From Kofleriaceae bacterium (GTDB lineage: Bacteria > Myxococcota_A > Polyangia > Haliangiales > Haliangiaceae), in the NCBI GenBank assembly GCA_964203225.1, contig CAXNMK010000002.1, positions 609,664 to 673,663 on the forward strand: a stretch of DNA of 64,000 bases. The letters are read 5' to 3'. Below are positions 942 to 38,600 of this stretch, piece after piece. The notes beneath the pieces are model-generated. The model was not told the DNA's origin and did not search any database. It worked only from the letters and a program-made list of their open reading frames with translations. Numbering within the stretch: the first letter of the stretch is position 1; each line of letters starts with the position of its first letter. The translations under genes were made by a program, and so were the position numbers.

Positions 942-1131
942 GGCAAGACCCGGGCCCTCCCAGGCTCCTGGACCTCGGTGTTGGGCACACCTCGCATGTC
1001 GTTGATCCACTTACATGGTCAAGCTCGACGAGCTGATCGTAGAATACACAATCGTGGCCGAACAAAAGTCTCCGCCAGATGAGGGCAACCCGGCAACCCA
1101 CCGGCGCACGGCTGCGGTCGCATCCGCCACG

Positions 1132-4038
1132 ATGGGGGCTCCACCCATTACCCGCTCGGTTCCACCGAGTGGTCCTCGGTCGCCGCCGCGACCCTCGTCG
1201 ACTTCGATCCTGGCGCCCGATCAGGTGTTCCCAAATCCCGCTGGCGGATCGGAGCGCAAGAAGGCCGACACCCAGGCACCACTGGAGTTTTCCGAGAACC
1301 AGCAGATCGGGCGGTTCGAGCTGATCCGCGAGATCGCACGCGGTGGTATGGGGCAGGTGTTCCTCGCTCGCGATACCAAGCTCGGTCGCAAGGTCGCGAT
1401 CAAGTTCCTGCTGCGCCCCGATCCGACCTTCGTCAGCCGGTTCGTCATCGAGGCTCGAGCGACAGCGCGCTGCACGCACGAGAACATTGTCACGATCTTC
1501 GAGGTCGACGAACACGATGGCCTGCCGTTCATGGTGCTCGAGTATCTCGAGGGCAAGACACTCAACGAGGCGTTCGAGACCAGGCCAGCGCCGCGCCAGT
1601 TCGCGGAGCTGATGGTGTCGGTCGCGCGCGCCCTCGAGCGTGCCCACGAGCACGGCATCGTCCACCGCGATCTCAAGCCGAGCAACATCTTCATCACCGA
1701 TCGTGGCGTGGTGAAGGTGCTCGATTTTGGAGTCGCGAAGTGTTTCGACAACCCGGTCGATGCGTTCGATCACGTGATCACCGCGACGGCATCCGGGAGC
1801 CGCGTGCCTCGCGCGCTGTCGGCGAGCTCCGACACGTTCGCTTCGGAGTACGTCACGTTCTCCGGTGGTGGCACGATGGTCGGCACGCAGCCGTACATGT
1901 CGCCCGAGCAGTGGGGCGCCGACGAGGTCGATCAGGCCTCGGATATCTGGGCGTTCGGCATCATGTTCTGGCGGGCGCTGGCCAAGAAGCATCCGGCCGG
2001 CTCGATGGCGCCCGACAAGTTACGCGCCAGGTTGTGCGATCTCGAGGCGCCGCTGCCGAGCATCCTCGCGGGCGATCCGACGCTGCCGAGCGACCTCGGC
2101 GCGATCGTCGACCGCTGCCTCTCGAAACGCAAGGCCGACCGCCCGACGGCGACCGACCTGGTCGCCGAGCTCCAGGCGTTCTTGCAACCGAAGGCGCGGA
2201 TCTCTGACGACGCCTGCCCGTACCGCGGGCTCGCCGCGTTTGGTGAGCGTGATGCAAAGTACTTCTTCGGCCGGTCGTCCGAGATCCGGACAGCGATCCA
2301 GCAGCTCGACGTCTGGCCCTTGCTCGCCGTGATCGGGCCGTCGGGTGTCGGCAAGTCGTCGTTCGTTCATGCCGGCCTCGCCCCCGCGATCCGCGACGCA
2401 GGCGGCAACTGGCAGATCCGGGTGCTCCGCCCCGGTCGCAACCCGCTCCAGAGCCTGGCCTCGGTCGTCGATGACGTCCTCGAGAGCAACGGGCAGGGTG
2501 TCGAGATGGTGGTCGCGCAACTGCGCGATGCGCCCGGGTTGTTCGGCGACATGCTGCGCAAGGCCGCCAAGCGTCGCAAGCACGAGGTGATGATCATCGT
2601 CGATCAGCTCGAGGAGCTGTTCACGCTGTCCGACGATGGCGAGGTGCGGGCGCTGTTCCTCGCGGCGCTGCTCGCGGCGGCGGACGATCCGAGCGCGCCG
2701 GTCCGGATCGTGCTGTCGATGCGCGCGGACTTCCTCGACCACCTCGCCGATCACAAGCAATTCATGGTGGAGCTCACGCGGGGGATGTTCTTCCTGTCGG
2801 CCCCCGGTCGTGACAACCTACGCGAGACCCTGGTGCGTCCCGCCGAGCTTGCCGGCTACGCGTTCGAGAACCAGGAGATCGTCGAGGACATGCTGCAGTC
2901 GGCGACCAGTCGAGGCGCGCTGCCGCTCCTCCAGTTCGCCGCGACCCAGCTGTGGGACGCGCGCGATCGCACGAGGAAGCGCCTGACCGCCGCCGCGTAC
3001 GCCGCGATGGGTGGCGTCGGCGGTGCGTTCGCGCGGCACGCCGATGAAGTCGCGGCGGCGGTCCCCAAGCACAGTCAGCTGCTGCTCAAGGCGATCATGA
3101 CCCGGCTGGTCACCCCCGAAGGTACGCGCGACGTCGTCGACCAGCGCGAGCTCGCCGGACTCACCGAGGACCAGAGCGAGGTCGCGCGGATCCTCGATCA
3201 GCTGGTTCGCGCGCGCCTGATCCACGTTCACAGCGACGACGTTCAGGGGGCGACCGTCGAGATCGTGCACGAGGTGTTGATCAGCGAGTGGCCGATGCTG
3301 GGCCGCTGGCTCGAGGAGGGTCACGCGTTGCGCGGGTTCATGCAGGAGCTCGGTCAGGCGGTGCGCCAGTGGGTCGCCCGCGGCAAGGCGAGCGATCTGG
3401 TGTGGCGCGGCGCGACCGCCCAGGAGGCGCTCGCCCTCACCAACCGCCACGTGCTCGATCTGTCCGCTGCGGAGCGCGAGTTCCTGCTCGAGGCCGAGCT
3501 CCACGCTGCGCGCGGCCGGCGCCGCAAGATGCTCGTGTTCGCGTCGATCTTTTCGGTGCTCGGGCTCGTGATCGCGGGGGGCGCGATCGCGGTCGTGCGG
3601 ATCTCGAACGCGCAGGAGGCGACCAACCAGCAGGCGATCGCCGCGCAGTCCGAAGCGAAGAAAGCCCGTTCTGCGGAGGCCGATGCGGCGCGCCAGCTCG
3701 ACGCCTTCAAGGCCGAGGAGCAACGCCGCGCGACCGCCGAGTTCGGGCGCAAGCAGGCGGAGGCCGCCGCCACGACCGCGAACCTCGCCGTCGATGCCTC
3801 GCGCGAGGAGCTGCAGCAGGCGAACCTCGATCTCCAGCGCACGCTCAAGGAGTCTCAGAATGACAAGGACCAGGCGCAGGCGCTCGCGGTCGCGGCCAAG
3901 GCGGCGGCCGAGATCGCGCGCAAGGCCACCGACGAGGCGAAGTCGGCGAACGCGAAGTTGCAGACCCTGCTCGCACAACAGAAGGATCGCGTGAAGCAAC
4001 TCGAGCTCGAGAAGAAGAAGATTGCGACCGGCCTGTGA
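1132..4038 (+). CDS. Ser/Thr protein kinase fused to nSTAND1-type P-loop NTPase, one TM helix and a C-terminal coiled coil
   Basis: Kinase motifs are present: [21 protein letters not shown] (1661-1690), DFGVAK and SPEQ. They are followed by the nSTAND1 hallmark CPYRGLAAFGERDAKYFFGR (2212-2275), Walker A GPSGVGKSS (2337-2363) and Walker B-like IIVDQLEELF. A TM helix (MLVFASIFSVLGLVIAGGAIAVV) and an A/E/K/Q-rich coiled coil run to the stop at 4038. The 5' end is uncertain. The ORF opens at 1015, but 1015-1110 is AT-rich with low GC3, so the ATG at 1132 is preferred. Confidence 0.85.
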   Translation: MGAPPITRSVPPSGPRSPPRPSSTSILAPDQVFPNPAGGSERKKADTQAPLEFSENQQIGRFELIREIARGGMGQVFLARDTKLGRKVAIKFLLRPDPTFVSRFVIEARATARCTHENIVTIFEVDEHDGLPFMVLEYLEGKTLNEAFETRPAPRQFAELMVSVARALERAHEHGIVHRDLKPSNIFITDRGVVKVLDFGVAKCFDNPVDAFDHVITATASGSRVPRALSASSDTFASEYVTFSGGGTMVGTQPYMSPEQWGADEVDQASDIWAFGIMFWRALAKKHPAGSMAPDKLRARLCDLEAPLPSILAGDPTLPSDLGAIVDRCLSKRKADRPTATDLVAELQAFLQPKARISDDACPYRGLAAFGERDAKYFFGRSSEIRTAIQQLDVWPLLAVIGPSGVGKSSFVHAGLAPAIRDAGGNWQIRVLRPGRNPLQSLASVVDDVLESNGQGVEMVVAQLRDAPGLFGDMLRKAAKRRKHEVMIIVDQLEELFTLSDDGEVRALFLAALLAAADDPSAPVRIVLSMRADFLDHLADHKQFMVELTRGMFFLSAPGRDNLRETLVRPAELAGYAFENQEIVEDMLQSATSRGALPLLQFAATQLWDARDRTRKRLTAAAYAAMGGVGGAFARHADEVAAAVPKHSQLLLKAIMTRLVTPEGTRDVVDQRELAGLTEDQSEVARILDQLVRARLIHVHSDDVQGATVEIVHEVLISEWPMLGRWLEEGHALRGFMQELGQAVRQWVARGKASDLVWRGATAQEALALTNRHVLDLSAAEREFLLEAELHAARGRRRKMLVFASIFSVLGLVIAGGAIAVVRISNAQEATNQQAIAAQSEAKKARSAEADAARQLDAFKAEEQRRATAEFGRKQAEAAATTANLAVDASREELQQANLDLQRTLKESQNDKDQAQALAVAAKAAAEIARKATDEAKSANAKLQTLLAQQKDRVKQLELEKKKIATGL

Positions 4039-13878: not shown

Positions 13879-13890
13879 TGAGCCTGCAGG

Positions 13891-13950
13891 CCGACCGTGG
13901 GCCGACCGTGGGCCGACCGTGGGCCGACCGTGGGCCGACCGTGGGCCGAA
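13891..13950. repeat. 12-bp direct tandem repeat (GCCGACCGTGGG) x5
   Basis: Five perfect head-to-tail copies lie immediately after the inverted-repeat element. Confidence 0.85.
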
Positions 13951-14015: not shown

Positions 14016-15987
<1,972 letters not shown>

Positions 15988-19813: not shown

Positions 19814-19856
19814 GTGGGCAGGTCGGTCATCGGCGGGTGGGGGCCGGGCGTGCACC

Positions 19857-20079
19857 GTCTCTGCGGAGACGTCGCCGACCGTCTCCGCGGAGACGTCGCC
19901 GAACCACATTCGGGTAGGCACGGCGCGGGGGGCAACGGGGTCCGGCGAAACCAACACAACCATCTGTGGATAACTCGCCACGTGCGCCGACGCAGCGAGT
20001 TGCCGACGCGGACCGTCTCCGCGGAGACGTCGCCGATCGTCGTCGCGTGCAGGCCGCCCCGCAACGTCTCCGCGGAGAC
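19857..20079. repeat. four copies of a 23-bp element containing the 14-bp perfect palindrome GTCTCCGCGGAGAC
   Basis: Copies are at 19857-19878 (one mismatch), 19881-19902, 20015-20036 and 20066-20087. The first two are tandem. The core is CGTCTCCGCGGAGACGTCGCCGA. Confidence 0.85.
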
Positions 20080-20218
20080 GTCGCTGAACGTCATCCGGGC
20101 GACGGTGCTGGCACCGGCGGTTCGCGCGGGCGTGATGCCCGCGCAGGGCGCGTGCTAGCGTTCATGGGTGAGCGCGAGCGCCCGCGCCGCGGATGTGCGC
20201 CGCGGCGGGACGCGGTCG

Positions 20219-21550
20219 ATGACACGCGCGTGGTGCACGCTCGTCGCCCTCGCGGCGTGCTCGAGCCCGGCCCCGCGGTCGCCCGCGCCACCGGCGCCGT
20301 GGACCGACGCGTGGATCCTCGCGCAGGCGCCGACGTACCTGGCCGACACCGCCGGGCGGCGCGCCGCGCTCGAGGCCTCGCTGTCCAACCCAGGAAATCT
20401 CTATGCGCGCCAGCGGCTGATGTCGTACGGGCTCGGCGACCGCGGCTGGGACCTGCTGCCGGCGTGGAACCCGCGCTCGCGGCCGGTGACCGCCCTGCTC
20501 GCCGCCACGCTCGCGACCGGTGACATCCCCGCGCTGCCCGACGACGCTCCGCCGCTGTGGGACGGCACCACGCCGACGACGATGGCGGCGTGGGTCGCCC
20601 TCGGCAGGCGCGTGTTCCTGGGCTACCCGATGCGCGCCGAGGTGTTCATGGAGTACGGGCTGACCGAGCCCGCGCTCGCCGCGTCCGTCGGCATCGAGCG
20701 CGCCGCGACCGGCGATGTCCCGGGGCTGGTCGTGTTCGCCGACGTCGGCGAAGAGGCGCGGGTCGGCATCACCTGCGCGATCTGCCACGCGAGCGTTCAG
20801 GGCGGCGAGGTCGTGCTCGGCCAGGCGCGGCGGAGCTTCGACTACGGCCGCCTGCGCGTCACCTACGACCGCGTGCACGCGGTGCCCGTCGATCCCGAGG
20901 AGGCGCGCCGGATGGCGGCGTGGGGGCCCGGGCGCGCGGACGTGACCGAGGACTCCGACGAGGATCCGGTCGCGATCCCCGATCTGTGGGGCCTGCGCGC
21001 GCAGCGCTGGCTGACGGCCGCCGGGACGATCCGCCACACGTCGCCGCTCGCGCTCGCGATCCGGCAGGAGACGCAGCTGATCGACTCGAACCACCAGCTG
21101 ATCCGCCCGCCGCGCGAGCTCGCGTGGGCGCTCGCGATGTTCCTCTACTCGCTGGCCCCGCCGGCGCGCGTGCCCGCGACGGCGTCACCGCTGATCGCGC
21201 GGGGCGTGCAGCTGTTCGCGGCGCACTGCGCGTCGTGCCACGCGAACGCAGCCGGAGGTGGCGGCGTGATCGCGGCCGCGCGGATCGGCACCGATCCGGC
21301 GCTCGCCACCGGGCGGGGACGTGGCACGGGCACGTACCGGGTGCCGGCGCTGCTCGGCGTCGGGGCAGGCGCGCCGTACCTGCACCAGGGCGCGGTCGCC
21401 TCCCTCGACGAGCTGCTGTCCCCGGCGCGGTTCGCGGCGGACCATGCCGGCGGAACGCGCGGGCCGGGCGCGATCCTCGGGCATGACGCGGGCACGGACC
21501 TGGGCGCCGATGACCGCGCGGCGCTGATCGCGTTCCTCGAGACGCTGTGA
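20219..21550 (+). CDS. di-heme cytochrome c peroxidase-like lipoprotein
   Basis: The ATG at 20219 gives MTRAWCTLVALAACSS (lipobox). Two CxxCH motifs are present (CAICH at 20773, CASCH at 21227). The C-terminal LIAFLETL matches the CCP family and the gene at 5078. Confidence 0.8.
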   Translation: MTRAWCTLVALAACSSPAPRSPAPPAPWTDAWILAQAPTYLADTAGRRAALEASLSNPGNLYARQRLMSYGLGDRGWDLLPAWNPRSRPVTALLAATLATGDIPALPDDAPPLWDGTTPTTMAAWVALGRRVFLGYPMRAEVFMEYGLTEPALAASVGIERAATGDVPGLVVFADVGEEARVGITCAICHASVQGGEVVLGQARRSFDYGRLRVTYDRVHAVPVDPEEARRMAAWGPGRADVTEDSDEDPVAIPDLWGLRAQRWLTAAGTIRHTSPLALAIRQETQLIDSNHQLIRPPRELAWALAMFLYSLAPPARVPATASPLIARGVQLFAAHCASCHANAAGGGGVIAAARIGTDPALATGRGRGTGTYRVPALLGVGAGAPYLHQGAVASLDELLSPARFAADHAGGTRGPGAILGHDAGTDLGADDRAALIAFLETL

Positions 21551-29712: not shown

Positions 29713-30858
29713 TCACCGCCGCGCCATCGCCCCGCGCATCAGGTCGACGAACCCGCCCTGGCCCTCGGCGAGCATCGCATCCAGCTCCTGGCCGACGGCG
29801 CGCACCTGCGGGCGCTTGCCGAGCGCGAGCACCGCGGCGATCTGGATCGTGATCAGCATCGACAGCCGGATCCCGGCCATGCCCGCCCAGCCGCCGGCGC
29901 CGAACGCCAGCACCCCGAACCGCAGCAGGGTGCCGAGCGGCTCGGCGACGTCGTTGAACATCCGTCGCGGGGGCGCCAGGGCGGACGCACCGCGCCGGGC
30001 CAGCGCCTTGCTCGCGGGCGCGGACTCGTCGGGGCGCGGCGTGCTCCGGGCGAGCAGCGCCACGACCTCGCGCGCGCGCTGCGGGCGCTTGTCGGGATCC
30101 GGATCGGTCATCGCCGCGAGCGCGTCGCGCAGCACGGGCTCGAGGTGGGGCAGGTGGCGCGCGAGGTCCATGCGCAGGCCCTTGCGCGGGACGTCCTCGG
30201 GCTCCACGCCGCCGGCAAGCGCGACGATGGTGGCGCCGAGCGCGTACAGGTCGGTTGCGGGCACCGCCTGGCCGTGGAGCTGCTCGGGGGCCATGTAGCC
30301 AAACGTGCCGACGATCGTCGAGCCACCCTTGTCGCGGGCGGCATCGAGGACGCCGCCGAAATCGACGATCGCCACCCGGCCGTCCGGCGCGCGGACGATG
30401 TTCGACGGCTTGAGATCGCGGTGGATCACCGCGGGCGCGCGGGTGTGGAGGTAGTCGAGGATCTCCAGGCAGCGGACCAGCACGTCGCGGAGCTCGAGCT
30501 CCGAGAATCGCCGGCGCGCCGCGATCGCGCTCAGGTCCTCGCCGGGCGCGCGCTGCATCACCAGGTTGAACGTGCCGGGCGGCTCCTCGATGGTGGCGAA
30601 CAGGCGCGGCACGCCGGCGTGGCGGAGCTGCCCGAGCACCTTGCCCTCGCGCTCGAACAGCTCGAACGACTTCCACGTGCCGCGCGGGGTCAGGCGCTTG
30701 ACGATCACCTCGCGCTCGGCGGCGACCTTCGCCTGGGTGTCCTGCGCGAGGAAGATGTCGCCCTGCGACCCCTTGCCGAGGCGCGGCCCGAGCCGGAACC
30801 GGCCGCCGAGGAGCGGTCCGTCGAACACACCTGCCATGACGCTCGCCCAGCGTGGCAC
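29713..30858 (-). CDS. Ser/Thr protein kinase with a C-terminal TM anchor
   Basis: The motifs are [28 protein letters not shown] and APEQ. A hydrophobic helix lies near the C-terminus. Confidence 0.9.
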
Positions 30859-30904: not shown

Positions 30905-31012
30905 CCCTCACGGGGCGCCGTCCATGCCCCTCGCGGGGCGCCGTCCCCGCCCCTCGCGGGGCGCCGTCCCCGCCCCTCGCGGGGCGCTGTCCCGGCCCCT
31001 CGCGGCGCGCCT
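30905..31012. repeat. about 24-bp tandem repeat (CTCGCGGGGCGCCGTCCCCGCCCC) x~4.5
   Basis: Imperfect head-to-tail copies lie between the MVP-like stop (31022) and the kinase start (30858). Confidence 0.8.
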
Positions 31013-31021
31013 CCCGCGCGT

Positions 31022-33480
31022 TCACCCCGTGGGGAGCGCGTGCCCGTTCGAGGGGACCGTCCGCGCCTGGACCCGGGCGATCACGCCCTCGAGCGGCGTG
31101 CCCGCGAACACCTTGTCGATCACGTCGGTCAGCGTCTTGCCGCCGACGAACGCCTGCACGCTCATCGCCTCGGCGACCTTGGCGAGCGTGTCCGCGTTGG
31201 ACAGCGCCAGCAGCGCCTCGCTGAACCCACCCTGCGCGGCGCCGAACCGGGCCACCGCGGCGTCGACCTCCGCGCGCAGCGCCTCGAGCACCAGCCCCTG
31301 GCGGGCGCGCGCGATCGCGCCCTCGTGCTGGGCGCGCGCCTGATCCCGCGCGAGCTGGGCGCCGTGCTCGGCATCGACGATCGCGCTGCGGGCGAGCGCG
31401 GCCTCGCGCTGGCGGGCGGCCTGCTCGAGCTCGGCCGCGAGCTGCGCGAGCCCGACGCGCAGGCGATCCCCGGTGGCCGCGACCTCGAGCTCGGCGAGCC
31501 GGCGGCCGGTGTCCGCGCGCGCCTCGGCCTCGCCGCGCGCGATCGCCTCGCGCCGCGCGGTCAGCTCGAGGCCGCGGGTGGCGCGCAGGAGGTTGATGCT
31601 GGCCTCCACGGCCTCGTGCTGCGCGTCGCCGAGCAGCGCCGCGATCGCTGGGTCCTCGATGTCGACGCCGAGCACCTCGACGTCGGTGACCCGCATCCCG
31701 ATCTCGGGGAACCACATCCCCGGACGTACGACGGGCATGACGTCCGTGACGTCCGGCGCGGTGGACGGCGCAAGAGCGCGCCCGAGGATCGCGTCGCGCA
31801 CGAGATCCACGGCGTGCGCGTAGAACCCCTCGATGGGGTGGCGCTTGGCGCTGCCCTTGAGCACCGAGCGCACGTGATCGCACAGCAGCTTCACGTAGTT
31901 CTCCACCTCGAACCAGCGCGCGGGCTCGCCCTCGAACGACACCCGCATCGCGTAGCCGAGCGCGACCTCCACGTGATCGGCGGTCTCGACCACGCAGCGA
32001 TCGCTGACCTTGTTGCCCAGCACCCGCAGGTACACGGTCTCGACCAGGCGCTCGGTGGTCTTGGGCGTGCCGGTGGACAGCTGCACCATCTCGAGGGTCT
32101 CGTCGTACGCGAGGATCAGGTTCTGCGGCCCCTGCTCCACGCGCCGGCGGCCCTGCTTGTCGACGACCATCACCGCGTAGCCGACCCACACGCCGACCGC
32201 GGGCGCGCCCTCGAACCGGGTGTCGATCATGAGCGTGCGCGGCTTGGTGAACGTGTTCGAGCGGTCGACCGCCTCGAACGAGGGCGCGGTGGTGCCCGGC
32301 GCGTGCGCGGCCTCGGCCGGGACCGGCGCGCCATCGGCGTGGCGCAGCGCGCGGTTGTGCGCGAGCACCTCGGCGTTGCCCGGGTACCAGGTGGCGCACT
32401 CGCGCGCGGTCAGGGCGCGGCGGACGATCACCTCCTCGACGGGGTTGGGCAGCAGCATCGCGGGTCCGCGCACCGTGCGGATCGCGCCGGTCTGCTTGTT
32501 CATCACGTAGCGCGCCTCGCCGGCGGGGACCGCCACCGCGAAGTGCTTGTCGTGCCCGTCGGAGCGCACCAGCGCGTGCTCCTCGCGCGGGAAGTAGATC
32601 GCGGTCTGCTTGCCGGTGATGAACAGCTCGTCGCCGACGTGCCGGGCCACGCCGTCCTCGGTGTACGGGGCGATCACCTTGACGTGCAGGCCCTGGATCT
32701 CGGACAGCTCGATCGCGCGGAACTTGCGGGCGCCGCCCTGCGTGATCACCGCCTCGGTGGGCGCGGGGAACACCACCTGCGGCCCGCGCTCGTAGCGCTT
32801 CTTGCCGCTCTCGTCGACGAGGATGCAGTACTCGAGGCGCTCGAGCGTGAGCGCCTCGCGCACCCACGCGCCGGGCTCGTCGGGCACCACGCCCACGCCG
32901 GTCGGCGGGATGTAGAACGACACGTCCGTGCCCTTGATCAGCAGCAGCTTGCCGACGGTGAGGTCCGCGGGGACGCGCACGACCGGGGCGCCGCATCGGG
33001 CTCCCCGGCCGCCGGCTTGATCACCGCCTCGCCCCAGCTCCGGCGCGCCTCGTCCTCGTTGTAGACGCGCACGAGCAGGTACTGGTTCGAGCGCAGGTGG
33101 TGGCCCTGCACGAGCTGCACGAGCTGACCGGGCCACAGCGCGAATGCGCACGGGCCGGTGATGTTGATCTTGCGGCCGACGAGCAGGTCCGGCGACGGGT
33201 ACACGCCGCCCGCCGCCGGGTGCTCCTGCTTGGCGGCGGGGTTCTTGAGGATCAGGTAGAAGCCCTCCGGCGCGATCGCGATCTGCTGGACCGCGTCCTC
33301 GAGGGAGCACGGCGCGAACTGCTTGGTGTCCGGATCGAACACCACCGGCCGCTCCTGCGCGGTCGGGTTGATCACCGTCGGGCCGGTGTACGTCTTGACG
33401 ATCCCCTTGGTGACGTCTTGCATGTAGGCGTACTCGGTCGGGGCGAGGACCAGATCGCGCTTGGTGGTTCGGTCGTCCAT
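31022..33480 (-). pseudogene. major vault protein (MVP) homolog; apparent 1-nt frameshift near 32985-32992 (a C4 run where a C5 run is expected)
   Basis: The gene starts with ATG at 33480 with a GGAGGG SD. N-terminal MVP repeats are present ([49 protein letters not shown]...YLLVRV). The reading frame then shifts by one and continues with the shoulder-domain hallmark VVETADHVEVALGYAMRVSFE (compare MVP [22 protein letters not shown]) and an Ala/Glu/Arg-rich cap-helix-like coiled coil. The total is about 815 aa across two frames (ORFs 32938..33759 and 31022..33559). Confidence 0.8.
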
Positions 33481-33679
33481 GCGTTTCCCTCCGTTCAAGA
33501 ACGTGACCAGCCGCAGGTGCGCGAGCGCCCGTGCCGCACGAGCCCGGGCGCTGCTCCATCGGCGAGCACCTGCGTCAGCGTGGAGCGGCCTGCGCCGTGC
33601 TGGCGCAGCGTCCCTCGTCCTGGCGCTGATGCACCGGCATGGCGGATCGTCGCGGCGTCGATCGCGGTTCGATCGCGCG

Positions 33680-34516
33680 TCAGTCGGCGTACGGCGCGAA
33701 CGCCGCGCGCGAGCTGCGGCCGCGGTTGAGCGCGGCGAGCTCGGCGGCGGTGAACGCATCGGGGGTGCCCGCGGGCAGGCGCGCGCGGATGAACCCGATC
33801 ACCAGGCGGCGGGCAGCGGCGCCGGCCTCCGCGATCGCGTCGCTGTCGCTGCCCGGCTCGGCGCACTCGTCCCACAGCTCGAACAGCGCGCGCCGGCGGG
33901 CCGCCGGCTCGGACACCGTCGCCCACAGCACGTCGAGGTTGCGCTGCACGTGGGCGGGCGCCTGCGCGAGCTGCGCGGCGCGATGGCGCGTGCCGATCAT
34001 CACGCGCTCGTCGCGGGTGGCGTCGAGGAACGCGAGCTTCTTCGACGCGTACGGGTCCTGGCCGTGGCGGCGCATCAGCGCGTCGGTGATGTCGAAGCCG
34101 CCGCCGATGATCGCCACGGTCTGGCCATGATCGGGGCGGGTGTCCGCGCCGGTCACGTTCTGATCCTGGCGCCGGGATGCGCCATCGGCGGGCACCGTGC
34201 CGAGCGTGCCGACCGGCCTGGTGTCGTTCTCGTACCAGGCCGCGATCGCGCGGCCCAGCTGCCGCGGGCGCGGCAGCGCGACGTGGATCTGGAAGTTGCG
34301 GCGGTCCTTGAGCGACACCGAGCCATCGCGCTCCACGGTGGCGGTGAACACGCCCTCGTCGGCGCGGTGGCGGCCGTGCCCGGACGGCGCGAGCTTCCCG
34401 GTCTCGAGGTGGGGATCAGCGGTCGGCGCGGTGCCGGCGGGCGCGTGGTCGAGGTCATCCCACCGGCCGGTCGGCAGGGCGCCGGGAGCCAGCGTCACGT
34501 CGCCCGGCCGCCGCAT
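33680..34516 (-). CDS. hypothetical protein; possibly the C-terminal domain of a TM-anchored protein starting at 34971
   Basis: The composition is normal from the Met at 34516 to the stop at 33680. The other frame (34495..34971) has a real-looking N-terminus with a TM helix (LALSAAAHVVLVVWVGV) that loses coding character near a (CTGCCG)x3 repeat at about 34647-34665, where this frame gains it. This suggests one gene with a frameshift. Confidence 0.4.
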   Translation of the reverse strand: MRRPGDVTLAPGALPTGRWDDLDHAPAGTAPTADPHLETGKLAPSGHGRHRADEGVFTATVERDGSVSLKDRRNFQIHVALPRPRQLGRAIAAWYENDTRPVGTLGTVPADGASRRQDQNVTGADTRPDHGQTVAIIGGGFDITDALMRRHGQDPYASKKLAFLDATRDERVMIGTRHRAAQLAQAPAHVQRNLDVLWATVSEPAARRRALFELWDECAEPGSDSDAIAEAGAAARRLVIGFIRARLPAGTPDAFTAAELAALNRGRSSRAAFAPYAD

Positions 34517-34983
34517 GTGCAGCCACGGCGACGGGCTGGTGGGCGGGCGCGCGGGCGGGGTGTCTGCGCCCGGCGCGGTGCCGGGGGCCGTCGCGGTCGC
34601 GGCGAGGCGGGCGGTGGGCGCGCGGCGCACGCGGCCGGGGTCCGGCGGCAGCGGCAGCGGCAGATGGCGGCGGTCGCGGCGGCGTCGAGGAACGCGAGCT
34701 CGACGGGCGCGGCCTCGTCGACGGCGGGCGGGGGCGGCGCGGTGAGCTCGATCAGCTCGATCCGGGGCGCCGGCGGCCGGGGCGGGGGCGCCTCGGCGCG
34801 CACGCCCACCCACACCACCAGCACCACGTGGGCGGCGGCCGAGAGCGCGAGGGCATCCGGGAGCGGCCGCACCGTGGGTCTGACCGGTCCACCGCGGAAT
34901 TCGTTGTCTGGCCGCCGAAACCCGGCGATCCGCCCGACACCTCCCGGACGTGCGATGACAGTCCCGGGCATGGAGAGGCGACG

Positions 34984-35601
34984 ATGATCGTGGCGCTGCT
35001 GGCGCGGTTGTTCCGGACCCGCGGGGACCTGCCCGCCGCCCGGGCGGGTGATCGGGTGGCGATCGGCCGACTGTACGACGCCCACGTCGACGGCCTGTAC
35101 GCGTTCGTGTTCTACCGGGTCGGCCGCGAGGCCGCGCTCGCGGAGGACGTGGTGCAGGAGACGTTCGCGCTCGCCCTGTCCCGCGAGGCCGCGTACGACC
35201 CGGCCCGCGGCTCGGTCGGGAGCTGGCTGACCACGCTGTCGCGCAACGTGATCCGCGATCACCTGCGCGAGCACCGGCGCACCGACGACCTCGCCGACGC
35301 GTGGGAGCGGATCGACGCCACCCTCGCGCAGACGTTCGCCGCGATGGCCGAGCACCCGCTACCCGGCGAGGTCCTCGAGCGCGCCGAGACCCGCGACCTC
35401 GTGCACATGGCGGTCGCCCACCTGCCGGAGCAGTACCGCACCGCGCTGTCGCGCAAGTACGTCGATGGCGAGAGCCTCGAGACGCTCGCGGGCGAGCTCG
35501 GCCTGTCCATCAGCGCCACCAAGTCACTCCTCGCCCGCGCCCGCCGCGCGTTCCGCGACACGTTCGCGACGCTGACGGCGCACCTCTCGGAGGCCGCATG
35601 A
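34984..35601 (+). CDS. ECF (sigma-70 family) RNA polymerase sigma factor
   Basis: It has the sigma-2 region (RLYDAHVDGLYAFVFYRVGREAALAEDVVQETF) and the sigma-4 region (LPEQYRTALSRKYVDGESLETLAGELGLSISATKSLLARAR). The stop overlaps the next start (ATGA). Confidence 0.85.
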   Translation: MIVALLARLFRTRGDLPAARAGDRVAIGRLYDAHVDGLYAFVFYRVGREAALAEDVVQETFALALSREAAYDPARGSVGSWLTTLSRNVIRDHLREHRRTDDLADAWERIDATLAQTFAAMAEHPLPGEVLERAETRDLVHMAVAHLPEQYRTALSRKYVDGESLETLAGELGLSISATKSLLARARRAFRDTFATLTAHLSEAA

Positions 35602-38600
35602 CCCGCACGCCCGATCCCGACGCGACCCGCGACGGCAGCATCCTCGATCGCAACGTCGAGACCCTGCTCGAGACCGGCGGCGATCCGCCGCGCATCGGCG
35701 ATGACGCGCGCCGCCGGATCCGCGCCGAGCTGTTCCACCGCCACGGCGCGGCCACCCCCGCGCGCGGCCTCCGCACGCCCGTGATCGCGATCGCCCTCGG
35801 CCTCGCGGCCACCGTCGTCGCGGCGCTTCTCGTCACGCGCCTGGTCGGCGGCAGCGTCGCGCCCGCGAGCCCGAGCACCCCCGGCGCGCTCGCCGATGGC
35901 TCGACGTGGATCCCCGGCCCCGGGGGCACGGTCACGCTGCTCGGCGCGCGCCGCGTGCGGGTGGAGGGCGCCGTGCTGCTCGACATTGCCCCCGCCCCCG
36001 CCCTTGCCCCCGCCCCCGCCCTCGCCCCCGCCCTTGCCCCCGCCCCCGCCCTTGCCCCCGCCCCCGCCCTTGCCCCCGCCCCCGCGTGCCCCCGGTCACG
36101 GCACGTTCGTCGTCGAGACCGCGCGCGGCCGCATCGAGGTGCTCGGCACGCGGTTCCTCGTCGATGCGTCCGCCGAGCGGACGACCGCCGCCGTGGTTCG
36201 CGGCCAGGTCAGCCTGGCCACCGGGGCCGGGCAGGTGCTGCTGCATGCCGGCGAGCAGGGCATCGCGGAGCGGCAAGGTCCGCCCACGCGCGGCCCCGCC
36301 CCGCGGCTCACTCACCTGGTGTCGTGGGCCGCGGAGGCGCGCCGCACCGCCGAGGTGGACGCCCGCCCGGCGCGCACCGGCTCGCTGTTCGCGCGGTCGC
36401 CCGCCGTGCGCGGCGACGCGCTCGGTCCCGAGGTGCCGCTGCCGCTGCGCGCGCTCGCCGTCGACGTGGTGATCGAGGATCAGGTGGCGCGCATCGCCCT
36501 CGATCAGACGTTCCACAACGCCAGCGATCAGGTGCTCGAGGGTGTGTACCGGTTCGCGATCCCGCCCGACGCCGCGCTCCAGCGGCTCGCGATGTACGTC
36601 GACGGCAAGCTCACCGAGTCCGCGGTCGTCGAGCGCATGCGCGCGCGGCGGGTCTACGAGGAGCTGGTCTACCGCCGCGTCGATCCAGCGCTGCTCGAGT
36701 GGGCGGGCGCCGGGCGGCTGTCGCTGCGCGTGTACCCGCTGCCCGCGCACCAGGACAAGCGCCTGGTGCTCGCGTACACGCAGAGCCTGACCCGCCTGTA
36801 CGGCGACTACACGCTGCGCGTGCCGATGCCCGAGATCGATCTACCCGTCGGCGAGCTCGCGCTCGACGTCACCGTGCGCGGCTGCGCGGGCTGCGAGCTG
36901 GCCTCGCCGAGCCACCAGATCCGCGTGACGAAGCAGGGCGACGACGCCCTCGTCACCTACCGCGCCACCGCCGCGACCCTCGGCGACTCGCTCGTGATCC
37001 ACGTCCGGGATCCGCGCCGCACGCCGAGCGTGGTCACCCACACCGCGGGGGCGGACCGCTACCTGCTCGTGCGGGCGCCCGCCCTGCTCCCCGCGCAGGC
37101 GCGCCCGTACCGCCCGCGCACGTGGGTGATCCTCGACGACGTCAGCGCCTCGCGCGGCGCCCCCGAGCGGGCGGCGCAGGCCGCGCTGATCGACGCGTTC
37201 ACGCGCGAGCTCGACGAGGAGGATCGCCTCGCGGTGGTGGCGTTCGACGTCACCGCCCGCACCCTGCTCTCACCGACGCGGGTCCTCGACGTCGACCGCC
37301 GCACACTCGCGACCGCGCTCGCAGACGAGGGCGAGGTCGGCGCCACCGATCTCGGCGTGGGCCTGGCCGCGGCGCTCGCGCACCTCGAGGGCGTGCGGCC
37401 CGACGACGCGATGCTCGTGTACCTCGGCGATGGGGTGCTCACCAGCGGCGGCGCCGTCCCGACCCGGCTCGATGCGCTGCGGGCGCAGGTCACCGGCAAG
37501 GCGCGGTTCGTGGGCGTGGGCGTGGGGGATGGTGCCGATCCGCAGGCCCTCGAGGCTCTCGCGGCCGCGACCGGGGGCTACGTGACCACGATCGACCTCG
37601 CCGACGACCTCGGCTGGCGCGCGTTCGATCTGGTCGCGGCGCTGCACACCACCCGGGTCACCGGGCTCGGCGCCCGCCTCGTCGATGCCGCGGGTGCGCG
37701 GGTCCCGGCGACGGCGTACCTGCGTGCGACGCAGCTCGCCGAGGGGGAAGAGCTCGAGCTCGTCGCGCAGCTCGTGGGCGCGGCGGCGCCGGTCGCGCTC
37801 GAGCTGACCGGCTCGATCGAGGGCACGCCCTGGTTGCAACGGATCGCCCTCCCGTCCGGCGCGGGGGCCCGCGCGGGCTACCTGCCGCGGCTGTGGGCGC
37901 AGCGCCACATCGCCGCGCGGCTGCTCGCCAAGCACGAGCCCGTGATCGTCCCGCCGTGCGTGAACGCCGCGCGCTGCCCCACCGAGGCCCAGCTGCGCGA
38001 GCAGCGCGACGAGGCGATCCGCCAGGAGGTGGTCGCGCTCGGCAAGCGCGAGTTCCTGCTGTCGCGGCACACGTCGTTGCTCGTCCTCGAGAACGACGCG
38101 ATGTACGCGACCTACGGCGTGACCAGGGGCGCCGGCGACACCTGGGCCCCGTACGCCCTGCCGGCGACCATCCCCGTGGTCGCGACCCGGCCGACCGGGA
38201 TCCCGGCGGACGTCGCGGCCGATGCCGAGCTGGTGCGCGCGCCGCTCGAGCCGTTCGCGAGCCCCGCCTCGACGGGGTGGGGCACGATCGGCACGCGCGA
38301 GACCGGTGGGACGCGCGGCGTCGGCTCCGGGCAGGGGTTCGGCGTCGGGTTCGGGCGCTCGGGCGTCGGGATCGGCGGCGGGGGCGCGGCGGCAGGCCCG
38401 GCCCCGAGCGCGGAGACCAGCGCCGCCAGTGGAGCCCCGTTCGCCGACATGGAGCGCCAGGCCAGGGTCGAGACCAAGGACCGGGATGTGCGCGCGGCGG
38501 AGCCCGATCTGGCCGTCGGCCTCGGGCAGCGGCCCGCGCTCGCGCAGCGGCGGCGGGTGCAGGCCGGCGAGCTGGTCGGGCTGGGTGGGCTGATCGGGAA

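Follow-up and report, generated by a model that had tools for sequence, protein, structure and literature searches.

We analyzed a 64,000-nucleotide (nt) stretch of DNA from a Kofleriaceae bacterium (contig CAXNMK010000002.1, positions 609,664 to 673,663; referred to as the window) with respect to a tandem repeat array that is located within the gene for a large regulatory protein, immediately downstream of the gene for an extracytoplasmic function (ECF) sigma factor. In this sequence, the reading frame of the regulator gene switches across the array. The gene is one conserved Kofleriaceae ECF-sigma regulator, present as a single-copy partner of the sigma factor gene and composed of an N-terminal segment, a transmembrane (TM) helix, and FecR, VIT, vWA, and TPR domains. 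Judged from comparison with related sequences, the array is young and lineage-specific, since 43 orthologous loci and two intact genes of a sister lineage lack it. The frame break results from a 2-nt deficit in the last repeat unit (GCCCGT to GCGT), and not from the number of repeats. It is highly probable that this deficit is a non-programmed lesion, be it an error of the assembly or a mutation. We put the chance that it is a deletion-type consensus error of the assembly close to even, and this is the reading that we favor, although the preference for an artefact over a mutation is our inference. It would be a mistake to annotate the gene as two proteins or to treat it as a phase-variable locus.

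The sigma factor regulator and its tandem array

The ECF sigma factor gene of the window is intact (Table 1), and its product scores 74.3 bits against the NCBIfam model TIGR02937 (sigma70-ECF; cut-off 42.9). Its TGA stop codon (35599-35601) overlaps the ATG start codon of the regulator gene (35598-35600), and the pairing of the two genes is kept in 48 related loci, across which the sigma factors share about 80% identity, and in two contigs of a sister lineage (L061 and L067). Contig L060, which derives from a near-identical strain, encodes a sigma factor whose sequence is identical to that of the window. The gene context suggests that the regulator binds this sigma factor. No Pfam or NCBIfam model for an N-terminal anti-sigma or pro-sigma domain matched residues 1-132 of the regulator.

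The 5' part of the regulator gene (frame 0; position mod 3 = 0) encodes a TM helix at residues ~61-82, which is placed at residues 63-80 in an AlphaFold2 (AF2) model, and it is colinear with the N-termini of the orthologous proteins P0001-P0030 and of 43 loci. From the model, we predict a single-pass membrane topology with a periplasmic FecR fold. The 3' part of the gene (frame 1) begins at 36094 with GHGTFVVETARGRIEVLGTRF... and is open to 41004. It is colinear with 51 loci by tblastn, and Pfam detected FecR (24.4 bits), VIT (73.8 bits), and VWA_3 (40.4 bits) domains in it, along with TPR matches. When the flanks of the array were joined without it, a single continuous FecR match was obtained (profile positions 39-96 of 97; 34 bits); these FecR scores of 24.4-34 bits compare with a cut-off of 24. 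We found no further stops or frame breaks in the remaining 4.9 kb (1636 downstream codons) of the regulator gene. The GC content of third codon positions (GC3) follows the same partition: it is 0.95-0.97 in frame 0 up to ~36000 and 0.90-1.00 in frame 1 from ~35960 onward, with the switch falling between ~35960 and 36080. These data bear out the gene anatomy proposed in an earlier sequence-only reading of this DNA, which had placed the anti-sigma N-terminus, the TM helix, and the start of FecR in one frame and the end of FecR, VIT, vWA, and TPR in the next.

Beyond the array, frame 0 encodes Arg-rich nonsense and is open to 39038. Since the GC content is high, a wrong frame can stay open for kilobases (here 3 kb), and frameshifts in such DNA may pass unnoticed or be over-interpreted. 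We also considered an independent expression of frame 1 from the ATG at 35896 or from later GTG codons and rejected it, since the corresponding region overlaps genuine frame-0 coding sequence (GC3 0.95). Moreover, a product made from frame 1 only would possess neither a signal peptide nor a TM helix, so that its VIT-vWA part could presumably not be exported.

Tandem Repeats Finder (TRF) called the array at 35986-36085 (period 18, 5.9 copies, score 158) and detected a 6-nt sub-period inside it (16.3 copies). On direct reading, the units measure 18, 18, 12, 18, 18, and 16 nt and are followed by GTGCCCCCGG; of the five full units, four have the same sequence. Relative to the orthologues, the inserted block comprises exactly 100 nt (100 = 3x33+1). 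The sequence-only reading had located the array near 35990-36105 and had noted its 100-nt span, which is not a multiple of 3. TRF and direct reading agree with both statements, and the irregular span comes down to two nucleotides missing from a single site. Of the two odd units listed in that reading, the 12-nt unit is genuine, while the 16-nt "unit" is the last 18-mer minus two C's. The translations likewise agree with its assignment of the array peptide, which is APAPAL in frame 0 and PPPPPL in frame 1.

The array has a GC content of 0.889, its longest homopolymer is C5, and no other G-quadruplex (G4)-prone tract in the window is as long; the G4-prone strand is the minus strand. Codon usage does not discriminate between its two frames, since CTT and TTG are alike rare (each 0.6% of the Leu codons of this genome; ATT accounts for 0.6% of the Ile codons). 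The units differ by a single substitution (T to C, position 36023). It leaves Leu unchanged in frame 0 (CTT to CTC) and replaces it by Ser in frame 1, which is a weak hint that frame 0 is the translated one. With up to three mismatches allowed, the array unit has 11 matches in the window compared to 0.54 expected by chance, and eight of these 11 are within the array. We rejected the idea that the array is a dispersed repeat or mobile element: the other matches in the window are at chance level at three mismatches, and 58 retrieved loci contain no copy.

For the comparison with relatives, we collected 52 loci from the GTDB species representatives (best identity 70%; region readable in 43 of the 52) and 5 loci from JGI metagenomes (best identity 71%). 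A protein search listed no match above 74% identity, although full-length relatives of ~90% identity (P0083, P0084) and identical neighbouring proteins exist, so that a relative's absence from that search is no evidence of absence. The orthologues that it did return are single open reading frames (ORFs) of 57-63% identity that cover 97-100% of the query. All 43 readable loci encode ...LLD[VI][AV]PGKGTF... in one frame and possess no array. In the sister lineage (L061 and L067; ~89-93% DNA identity), the sigma factor gene is accompanied by a single undisrupted ORF for the regulator (1754 aa in L061, 1752 aa in L067), and the corresponding loop reads GAT GTC GCG GCC GGC CAC GGC (DVAAGHG), again without an array. 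The orthologues' loop at the array site comprises 7 residues, and the repeat motif was not found in any of the 58 retrieved loci or in L061 and L067. The ancestral form reads ...GAC ATT GCC CCC / GGT CAC GGC..., from which the window differs by the 100-nt insertion; the first array unit reuses the flanking TT of the codon ATT. The comparison of repeat length with orthologues suggested in the sequence-only reading thus revealed neither an array nor a frame change in any relative, and nothing marks a conserved switch. In-frame repeats do occur in linkers of the same protein in relatives, e.g., (PAT)n in L035.

The array is genuine and represents a very young slippage expansion that started from the GCCCCC within the loop codons of the ancestor (...GAC ATT GCC CCC GGT CAC...), and its TT comes from the rare ATT codon at the 5' edge. 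Its predicted position is a solvent-exposed loop between two β-strands of the FecR-like periplasmic domain. Read in frame 0, it would add ~34 residues of (APAPAL)n to this insertion-tolerant loop. In the AF2 model of the repaired N-terminal 495 residues (mean pLDDT 65.5), β-strands run across residues 103-129, and the array residues 135-168 (pLDDT <50) form a β-sandwich loop flanked by strands 119-129 and 171-174. Foldseek matched this model to ITIH1 (6fpy, E 7.5e-10, VIT part), to the PupR CCSSD (6ovk, E 6e-7), and to 4m0n (E 2.5e-7), a Bacteroidetes anti-sigma factor. The FecR loop is a recurrent insertion site, since the same position is extended in frame by 7-11 residues in two distant orthologues (L038, ~3460-3520; L049, ~3480-3540). 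An in-frame (APAPAL)n insertion is, as far as the model goes, plausibly tolerated there.

Site of the frame loss and a second frameshift

When the array is parsed as hexamers from position 35988, 16 hexamers (GCCCCC, GCCCTT, or GCCCTC) are followed by the 4-mer GCGT, by GCCCCC, and then by the unique flank GGTCAC. All of 35988-36093 is in hexamer phase except GCGT, and from this register the 2-nt deficit appears to lie at GCGT (36084-36087), where the junction in the window reads ...GCCCCCGCGTGCCCCCGGTCAC.... Insertion of CC after 36085 (GCGT to GCCCGT) yields a single ORF of 1802 aa without an internal stop that reads ...APAPARAPGHGTFVVE... and encodes the peptide ...(APAPAL)n APAPAR AP GHGTF.... 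If the deficit is an error, the real gene would be a single ORF of ~1802 aa in which nothing is switched. Three k-mers are diagnostic at this site: CCCCCGCGTGCCCCCGGTCAC for the allele of the window, CCCCCGCCCGTGCCCCCGGTCAC for the in-frame repaired form, and GACATTGCCCCCGGTCAC for a gene without the array.

A second frameshift, overlooked by the sequence-only reading, lies 1.3 kb from the array lesion within the same module. It splits the divergently transcribed neighbour gene (Table 1), whose orthologues are colinear in a single frame over residues ~20-331. In the window, residues 1-104 of the protein encoded on L060 are found at 34971-34660 (frame -2) and residues 105-331 at 34660-33980 (frame -1). 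At this lesion, the window reads GCGGCAGCGGCAGCGGC-AGATGG and L060 reads GCGGCAGCGGCAGCGGGGAGATGG; the window lacks 1 nt at ~34661 and carries an adjacent substitution (GGGG to GC). The two forms are distinguished by the alleles CAGCGGCAGATGG and CAGCGGGGAGATGG, the reading other than that of the window being GCGGGGAG. The neighbour gene is intact in L060, an independent MEGAHIT assembly from a different, 99.65%-identical strain, and this contig ends 22 nt before the array.

Near-identical strains (99.65-99.94% identity) are represented in several metagenome assemblies, although none of their contigs (L059, L060, and L064-L066) crosses the array; strains of 99.8-99.9% identity occur in run ERR3719165 and in the runs behind ERZ27280286 and ERZ27280198. 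The 16.9 kb that we compared (L059, L060, and L064) contain 32 mismatches and one gap, which is that at ~34661. The other ~15 kb show 0 gaps relative to the independent assemblies, although this sequence covers a G8 run, seven other runs (6-7 nt each), and two tandem arrays. Together with the full-length Pfam matches of other genes, this led us to reject a generally noisy assembly. Single-nucleotide polymorphisms (SNPs) outside the module comprise 15 synonymous and 11 nonsynonymous changes, whereas all five coding SNPs within the module are nonsynonymous (5/5 vs 11/26; one-sided p ~0.026) and are located in low-complexity linkers. The two frameshifts are the only ones detected in the 64 kb, they sit in adjacent syntenic genes, and both fall within the top 1.2% of the 200-nt GC contents of the window (72% on average; ~80% around the regulator gene). 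A different pattern is found in L058 (ERZ25039510 contig_12901, 3.0 Mb), whose regulator gene contains at least 6 frame changes, and at least 7 occur in the sigma factor and regulator genes within ~6 kb; such a pattern is characteristic of long-read assemblies that have not been polished and sets L058 apart from the window.

Origin of the frame loss

A consensus error would have arisen in a tract that is 89% GC, G4-prone, and tandemly repeated. Such an error would account for the single element that is out of hexamer phase in a gene that is one ORF in the 43 loci, in P0001-P0030, and in L061 and L067, and likewise for the second small deletion, which affects another perfect hexamer repeat in a gene whose frame is intact in L060. 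According to a study of human reads, deletion errors are elevated at G4 motifs on the Illumina, HiFi, and Oxford Nanopore platforms and at direct-repeat motifs on Illumina and HiFi (PMC10519405). Both lesions of the window resemble the errors described in that study in being small deletions in G4-prone or tandem repeats at extreme GC content, although the rates given there come from human reads and not from a polished bacterial consensus. Since the short-read contig L060 stops 22 nt before the array, the tract seems hard to cover and to polish with short reads; the length of the source contig (854,426 nt) suggests a long-read assembly. Several observations weigh against an error. The ~15 kb with 0 gaps, G8 run included, indicate that the consensus is generally accurate, and the 2 nt were lost from a run of only three C's, unlike the classic miscall in a long homopolymer. 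The change at 34661 creates a perfect copy of the neighbouring unit, as a templated misalignment mutation would, and two frameshifts in adjacent genes of one module are what real decay of the module would produce. If the contig stems from a short-read de Bruijn graph assembly, the junction k-mer must exist in the reads.

Several of these observations also speak for a real and very recent mutation, in which case the regulator gene would be a fresh pseudogene or a hypomorph; this is quite possible, and we give it somewhat less than an even chance. The product would consist of the N-terminus, the TM helix, and half of FecR, followed by ~980 nonsense residues. With the frameshift of the neighbour gene added, the whole sigma module would be decaying, and by analogy to truncated MucA the sigma factor might be deregulated. 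The strains do differ from one another and their SNPs outside the module are largely synonymous, so that the indel could be a strain difference as well; the nonsynonymous excess within the module points in the same direction, but it rests on five sites in low-complexity linkers. No protein record exists for the product of either frame, whereas the sigma factor, CorA, and helicase of the same contig do have records, which suggests that the depositor's annotation (or PGAP) calls these genes pseudogenes. On the other hand, the module is conserved without damage in all of the relatives examined, the neighbour gene is intact even in the 99.65%-identical strain, the sigma factor gene is undamaged and its protein identical to that of L060, and the other 4.9 kb of the regulator gene have not acquired a second lesion. 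Both lesions also lie in those extreme-GC, repeat, and G4 contexts in which, according to that study, deletion errors concentrate (PMC10519405).

The sequence-only reading had offered a choice between an assembly indel and a gating of VIT-vWA expression by repeat length. The former stands as one of the two leading explanations, and the latter fails on the frame-neutral units: since complete units measure 6, 12, or 18 nt, their gain or loss cannot toggle the frame. A contingency switch would have to operate through the out-of-phase copy of TGCCCCCG at 36087, with array-length variants turning VIT-vWA ON and OFF, and we consider this very unlikely. The frame would be regained by any deletion of 16, 34, 52, 82, or 100 nt between the 8-nt TGCCCCCG repeats. 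In favor of a switch, the young array is evidently unstable, the window holds several further young arrays of this type, and the contig break of the near-identical strain just before the array could reflect heterogeneity, although GC content and coverage explain this break equally well. Against a switch, the strong slippage homologies of the array (16-45 nt at offsets 18, 30, 36, 48, 66, and 84, the longest in-phase one being 45 nt at offset 18) are all frame-neutral, whereas the frame-restoring deletions have only the 8-nt microhomology with the terminal out-of-phase copy at their disposal; at duplication offsets, there is no homology above 5 nt. No relative carries an array at this site. The known phase-variable coding repeats have units that are not divisible by 3, or long homopolymers. 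The array resembles contingency loci in that a coding tandem repeat coincides with a change of the reading frame, and it differs from them in that its units of 6, 12, and 18 nt are divisible by 3 and that it contains no long homopolymer.

We regard it as exceedingly unlikely that the DNA is correct and that a +1 slip of tRNA-Pro, at CCC_C or in the array, yields the full-length protein at a low level that may be regulated. CCC_C at 36090-36093 would be, speculatively, the only place where such a slip enters the downstream frame. The slip on CCC lands exactly on GGT CAC GGC (GHG), and the predicted trans-frame peptide would read ...APAPACPGHGTFVVE... or similar. A tendency to slip in the +1 direction, with a dependence on m1G37 and EF-P, has been documented for CCC-C (PMC4519876, PMC7577736). 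Conversely, the two-frame organization is not conserved, since the relatives (43 loci, L061, and L067) encode one frame, and direct reading of the site revealed no in-frame stop, rare-codon pause, or internal Shine-Dalgarno sequence. Background slippage at sites of the CCC-C type amounts to ~1% at most. Nor did we find a downstream RNA structure or known recoding element: the fold is not stabler than that of shuffled sequence (z = +0.87), and no Rfam match was obtained. In a combined form, the DNA would be correct and the G4-prone array would act as a crude ON/OFF device or dimmer of the VIT-vWA sensor, through microhomology deletion or +1 slip; this is very improbable, and a switch or recoding of any kind, taken together, is improbable too. 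If true, the dimmer would provide population-level or translational heterogeneity in the envelope signalling of a free-living myxobacterium.

Known systems and other features of the window

The regulator shares with sigma regulators of the FecR/PupR type the ATGA coupling to an ECF sigma factor gene, a short N-terminus, one TM helix, and a periplasmic FecR fold (PF04773). It differs from them by the lack of a recognized anti-sigma domain and of a TonB-dependent transducer among the scanned neighbours (no Pfam match to Plug or TonB_dep_Rec was found among 30 large ORFs scanned across the window), and by an unusual and enormous, array-interrupted periplasmic part that consists of VIT, vWA, ~900 uncharacterised residues, and TPR. 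In its succession of VIT and vWA and in its best structural match (ITIH1, 6fpy), this part resembles the inter-α-trypsin inhibitor heavy chains and VPARP-like proteins, whereas in the window the module is predicted to make up the extracytoplasmic portion of a sigma regulator from a bacterium.

For a real lesion, the closest precedent would be, by analogy, the class of mucA22 frameshifts. mucA22 is a loss of 1 bp from a G5 simple sequence repeat in the anti-sigma gene mucA of Pseudomonas aeruginosa (PMC2781719). In both cases, a short G/C run in the gene for a TM anti-sigma protein carries a small deletion that removes the periplasmic part but spares the sigma-binding N-terminus and the TM helix. 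mucA22 has been established by experiment, recurs, and is under selection in the cystic fibrosis lung; in contrast, the lesion of the window has been seen once and lies at the end of a hexamer array. A strain with real lesions would be a natural mutant of a Kofleriaceae-wide sigma module and could help to find its regulon. As an expansion of a tandem repeat in coding sequence, the array belongs to an ordinary and known class of events. Like other expansions of this kind in Ala/Pro linkers, it consists of near-identical in-phase units that encode (APAPAL)n in a disordered loop, and it differs from them in its very rare codons and its frame-breaking defect. The module also illustrates a trap of DNA with extreme GC content, in which G4-capable hexamer repeats gather small deletions, either as consensus errors or as real mutations.

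Table 1. Coordinates of the sigma module and of the sequence elements discussed in the text (positions within the window)
Feature	Position	Strand	Basis
Divergent conserved neighbour gene, TM helix and Pro-rich region; split by frameshift at ~34661	33680..34971	-	
(GCGGCA)3.2 perfect hexamer repeat with second lesion	34645..34663	+	TRF, blastn
ECF sigma factor gene, 205 aa, intact	34984..35601	+	Pfam Sigma70_r2 54.4 bits, Sigma70_r4_2 44.9 bits
Regulator, 5' part, frame 0: cytoplasmic N-terminus, TM helix, first FecR strands, ending ...RVEGAVLLDIAP	35598..35993	+	Translation, GC3
Tandem-array insertion, 100 nt, lineage-specific	35994..36093	+	Sequence parsing, TRF, orthologue comparison
Defective repeat element GCGT, sole element out of hexamer register	36084..36087	+	Direct parsing
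CCC_C, frame 0 TGC CCC CGG, directly before GGT 36094	36090..36093	+	Direct reading
Regulator, 3' part, frame 1: FecR C-terminal half, VIT, vWA, long uncharacterised region, C-terminal TPR	36094..41004	+	Pfam
Gly-rich putative lipoprotein, signal peptide with lipobox-like FAGAC	41070..42425	+	Translation

The putative lipoprotein encoded downstream of the regulator may belong to the sigma module. Its gene is syntenic in L058, L061, and L067, and the L058 protein is 57% identical. No family match was obtained for it, and the exact protein is not on record. Synteny breaks off after corA (45998-48001), where the window carries kup, the gene for a K+ transporter, and the 91-96%-identical contigs L061-L063 carry genes for a response regulator and a histidine kinase.

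Two genes from the VIT-vWA protein, the window encodes a bacterial homologue of the major vault protein (MVP; 845 aa, 31022-33559, minus strand) with the Pfam domains MVP_shoulder and Vault_3. It is colinear with rat MVP over residues 461-754 (phmmer E 8e-17) and of similar overall length. The vault component VPARP contains the same VIT-vWA domain pair. We see no support for a linkage of the two genes, since their adjacency is kept only in L009 and is probably coincidental.

Several other repeats are present in the window. A 23-nt array (4.9 copies, 91% identity, 30905-31015) separates the stop codon of the MVP-like gene from the 5' end of the gene for a Ser/Thr kinase (29713-30858, minus strand); its period is not a multiple of 3, and it may be a promoter-region repeat. 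Two 24-nt arrays with the common core CCGCGGAGACGT (19854-19902 and 20007-20104) lie upstream of a cytochrome-c gene (20168-21550). A perfect 11-nt array of 5.5 copies (GGCCGACCGTG, 13889-13949) occupies the convergent intergenic region downstream of groEL, and the independent contig L059 contains the same number of copies (0 gaps). Within groEL itself (14016-15686, minus strand), six copies of a 9-nt in-frame repeat (14024-14078) encode the classical GGM tail and represent a benign coding repeat. GC3 is ~0.91 in the first ~6 kb of the window compared to ~0.95-0.97 elsewhere, and a gene at 1015-4038 encodes a 1007-aa fusion of a Ser/Thr kinase to an nSTAND1 NTPase.

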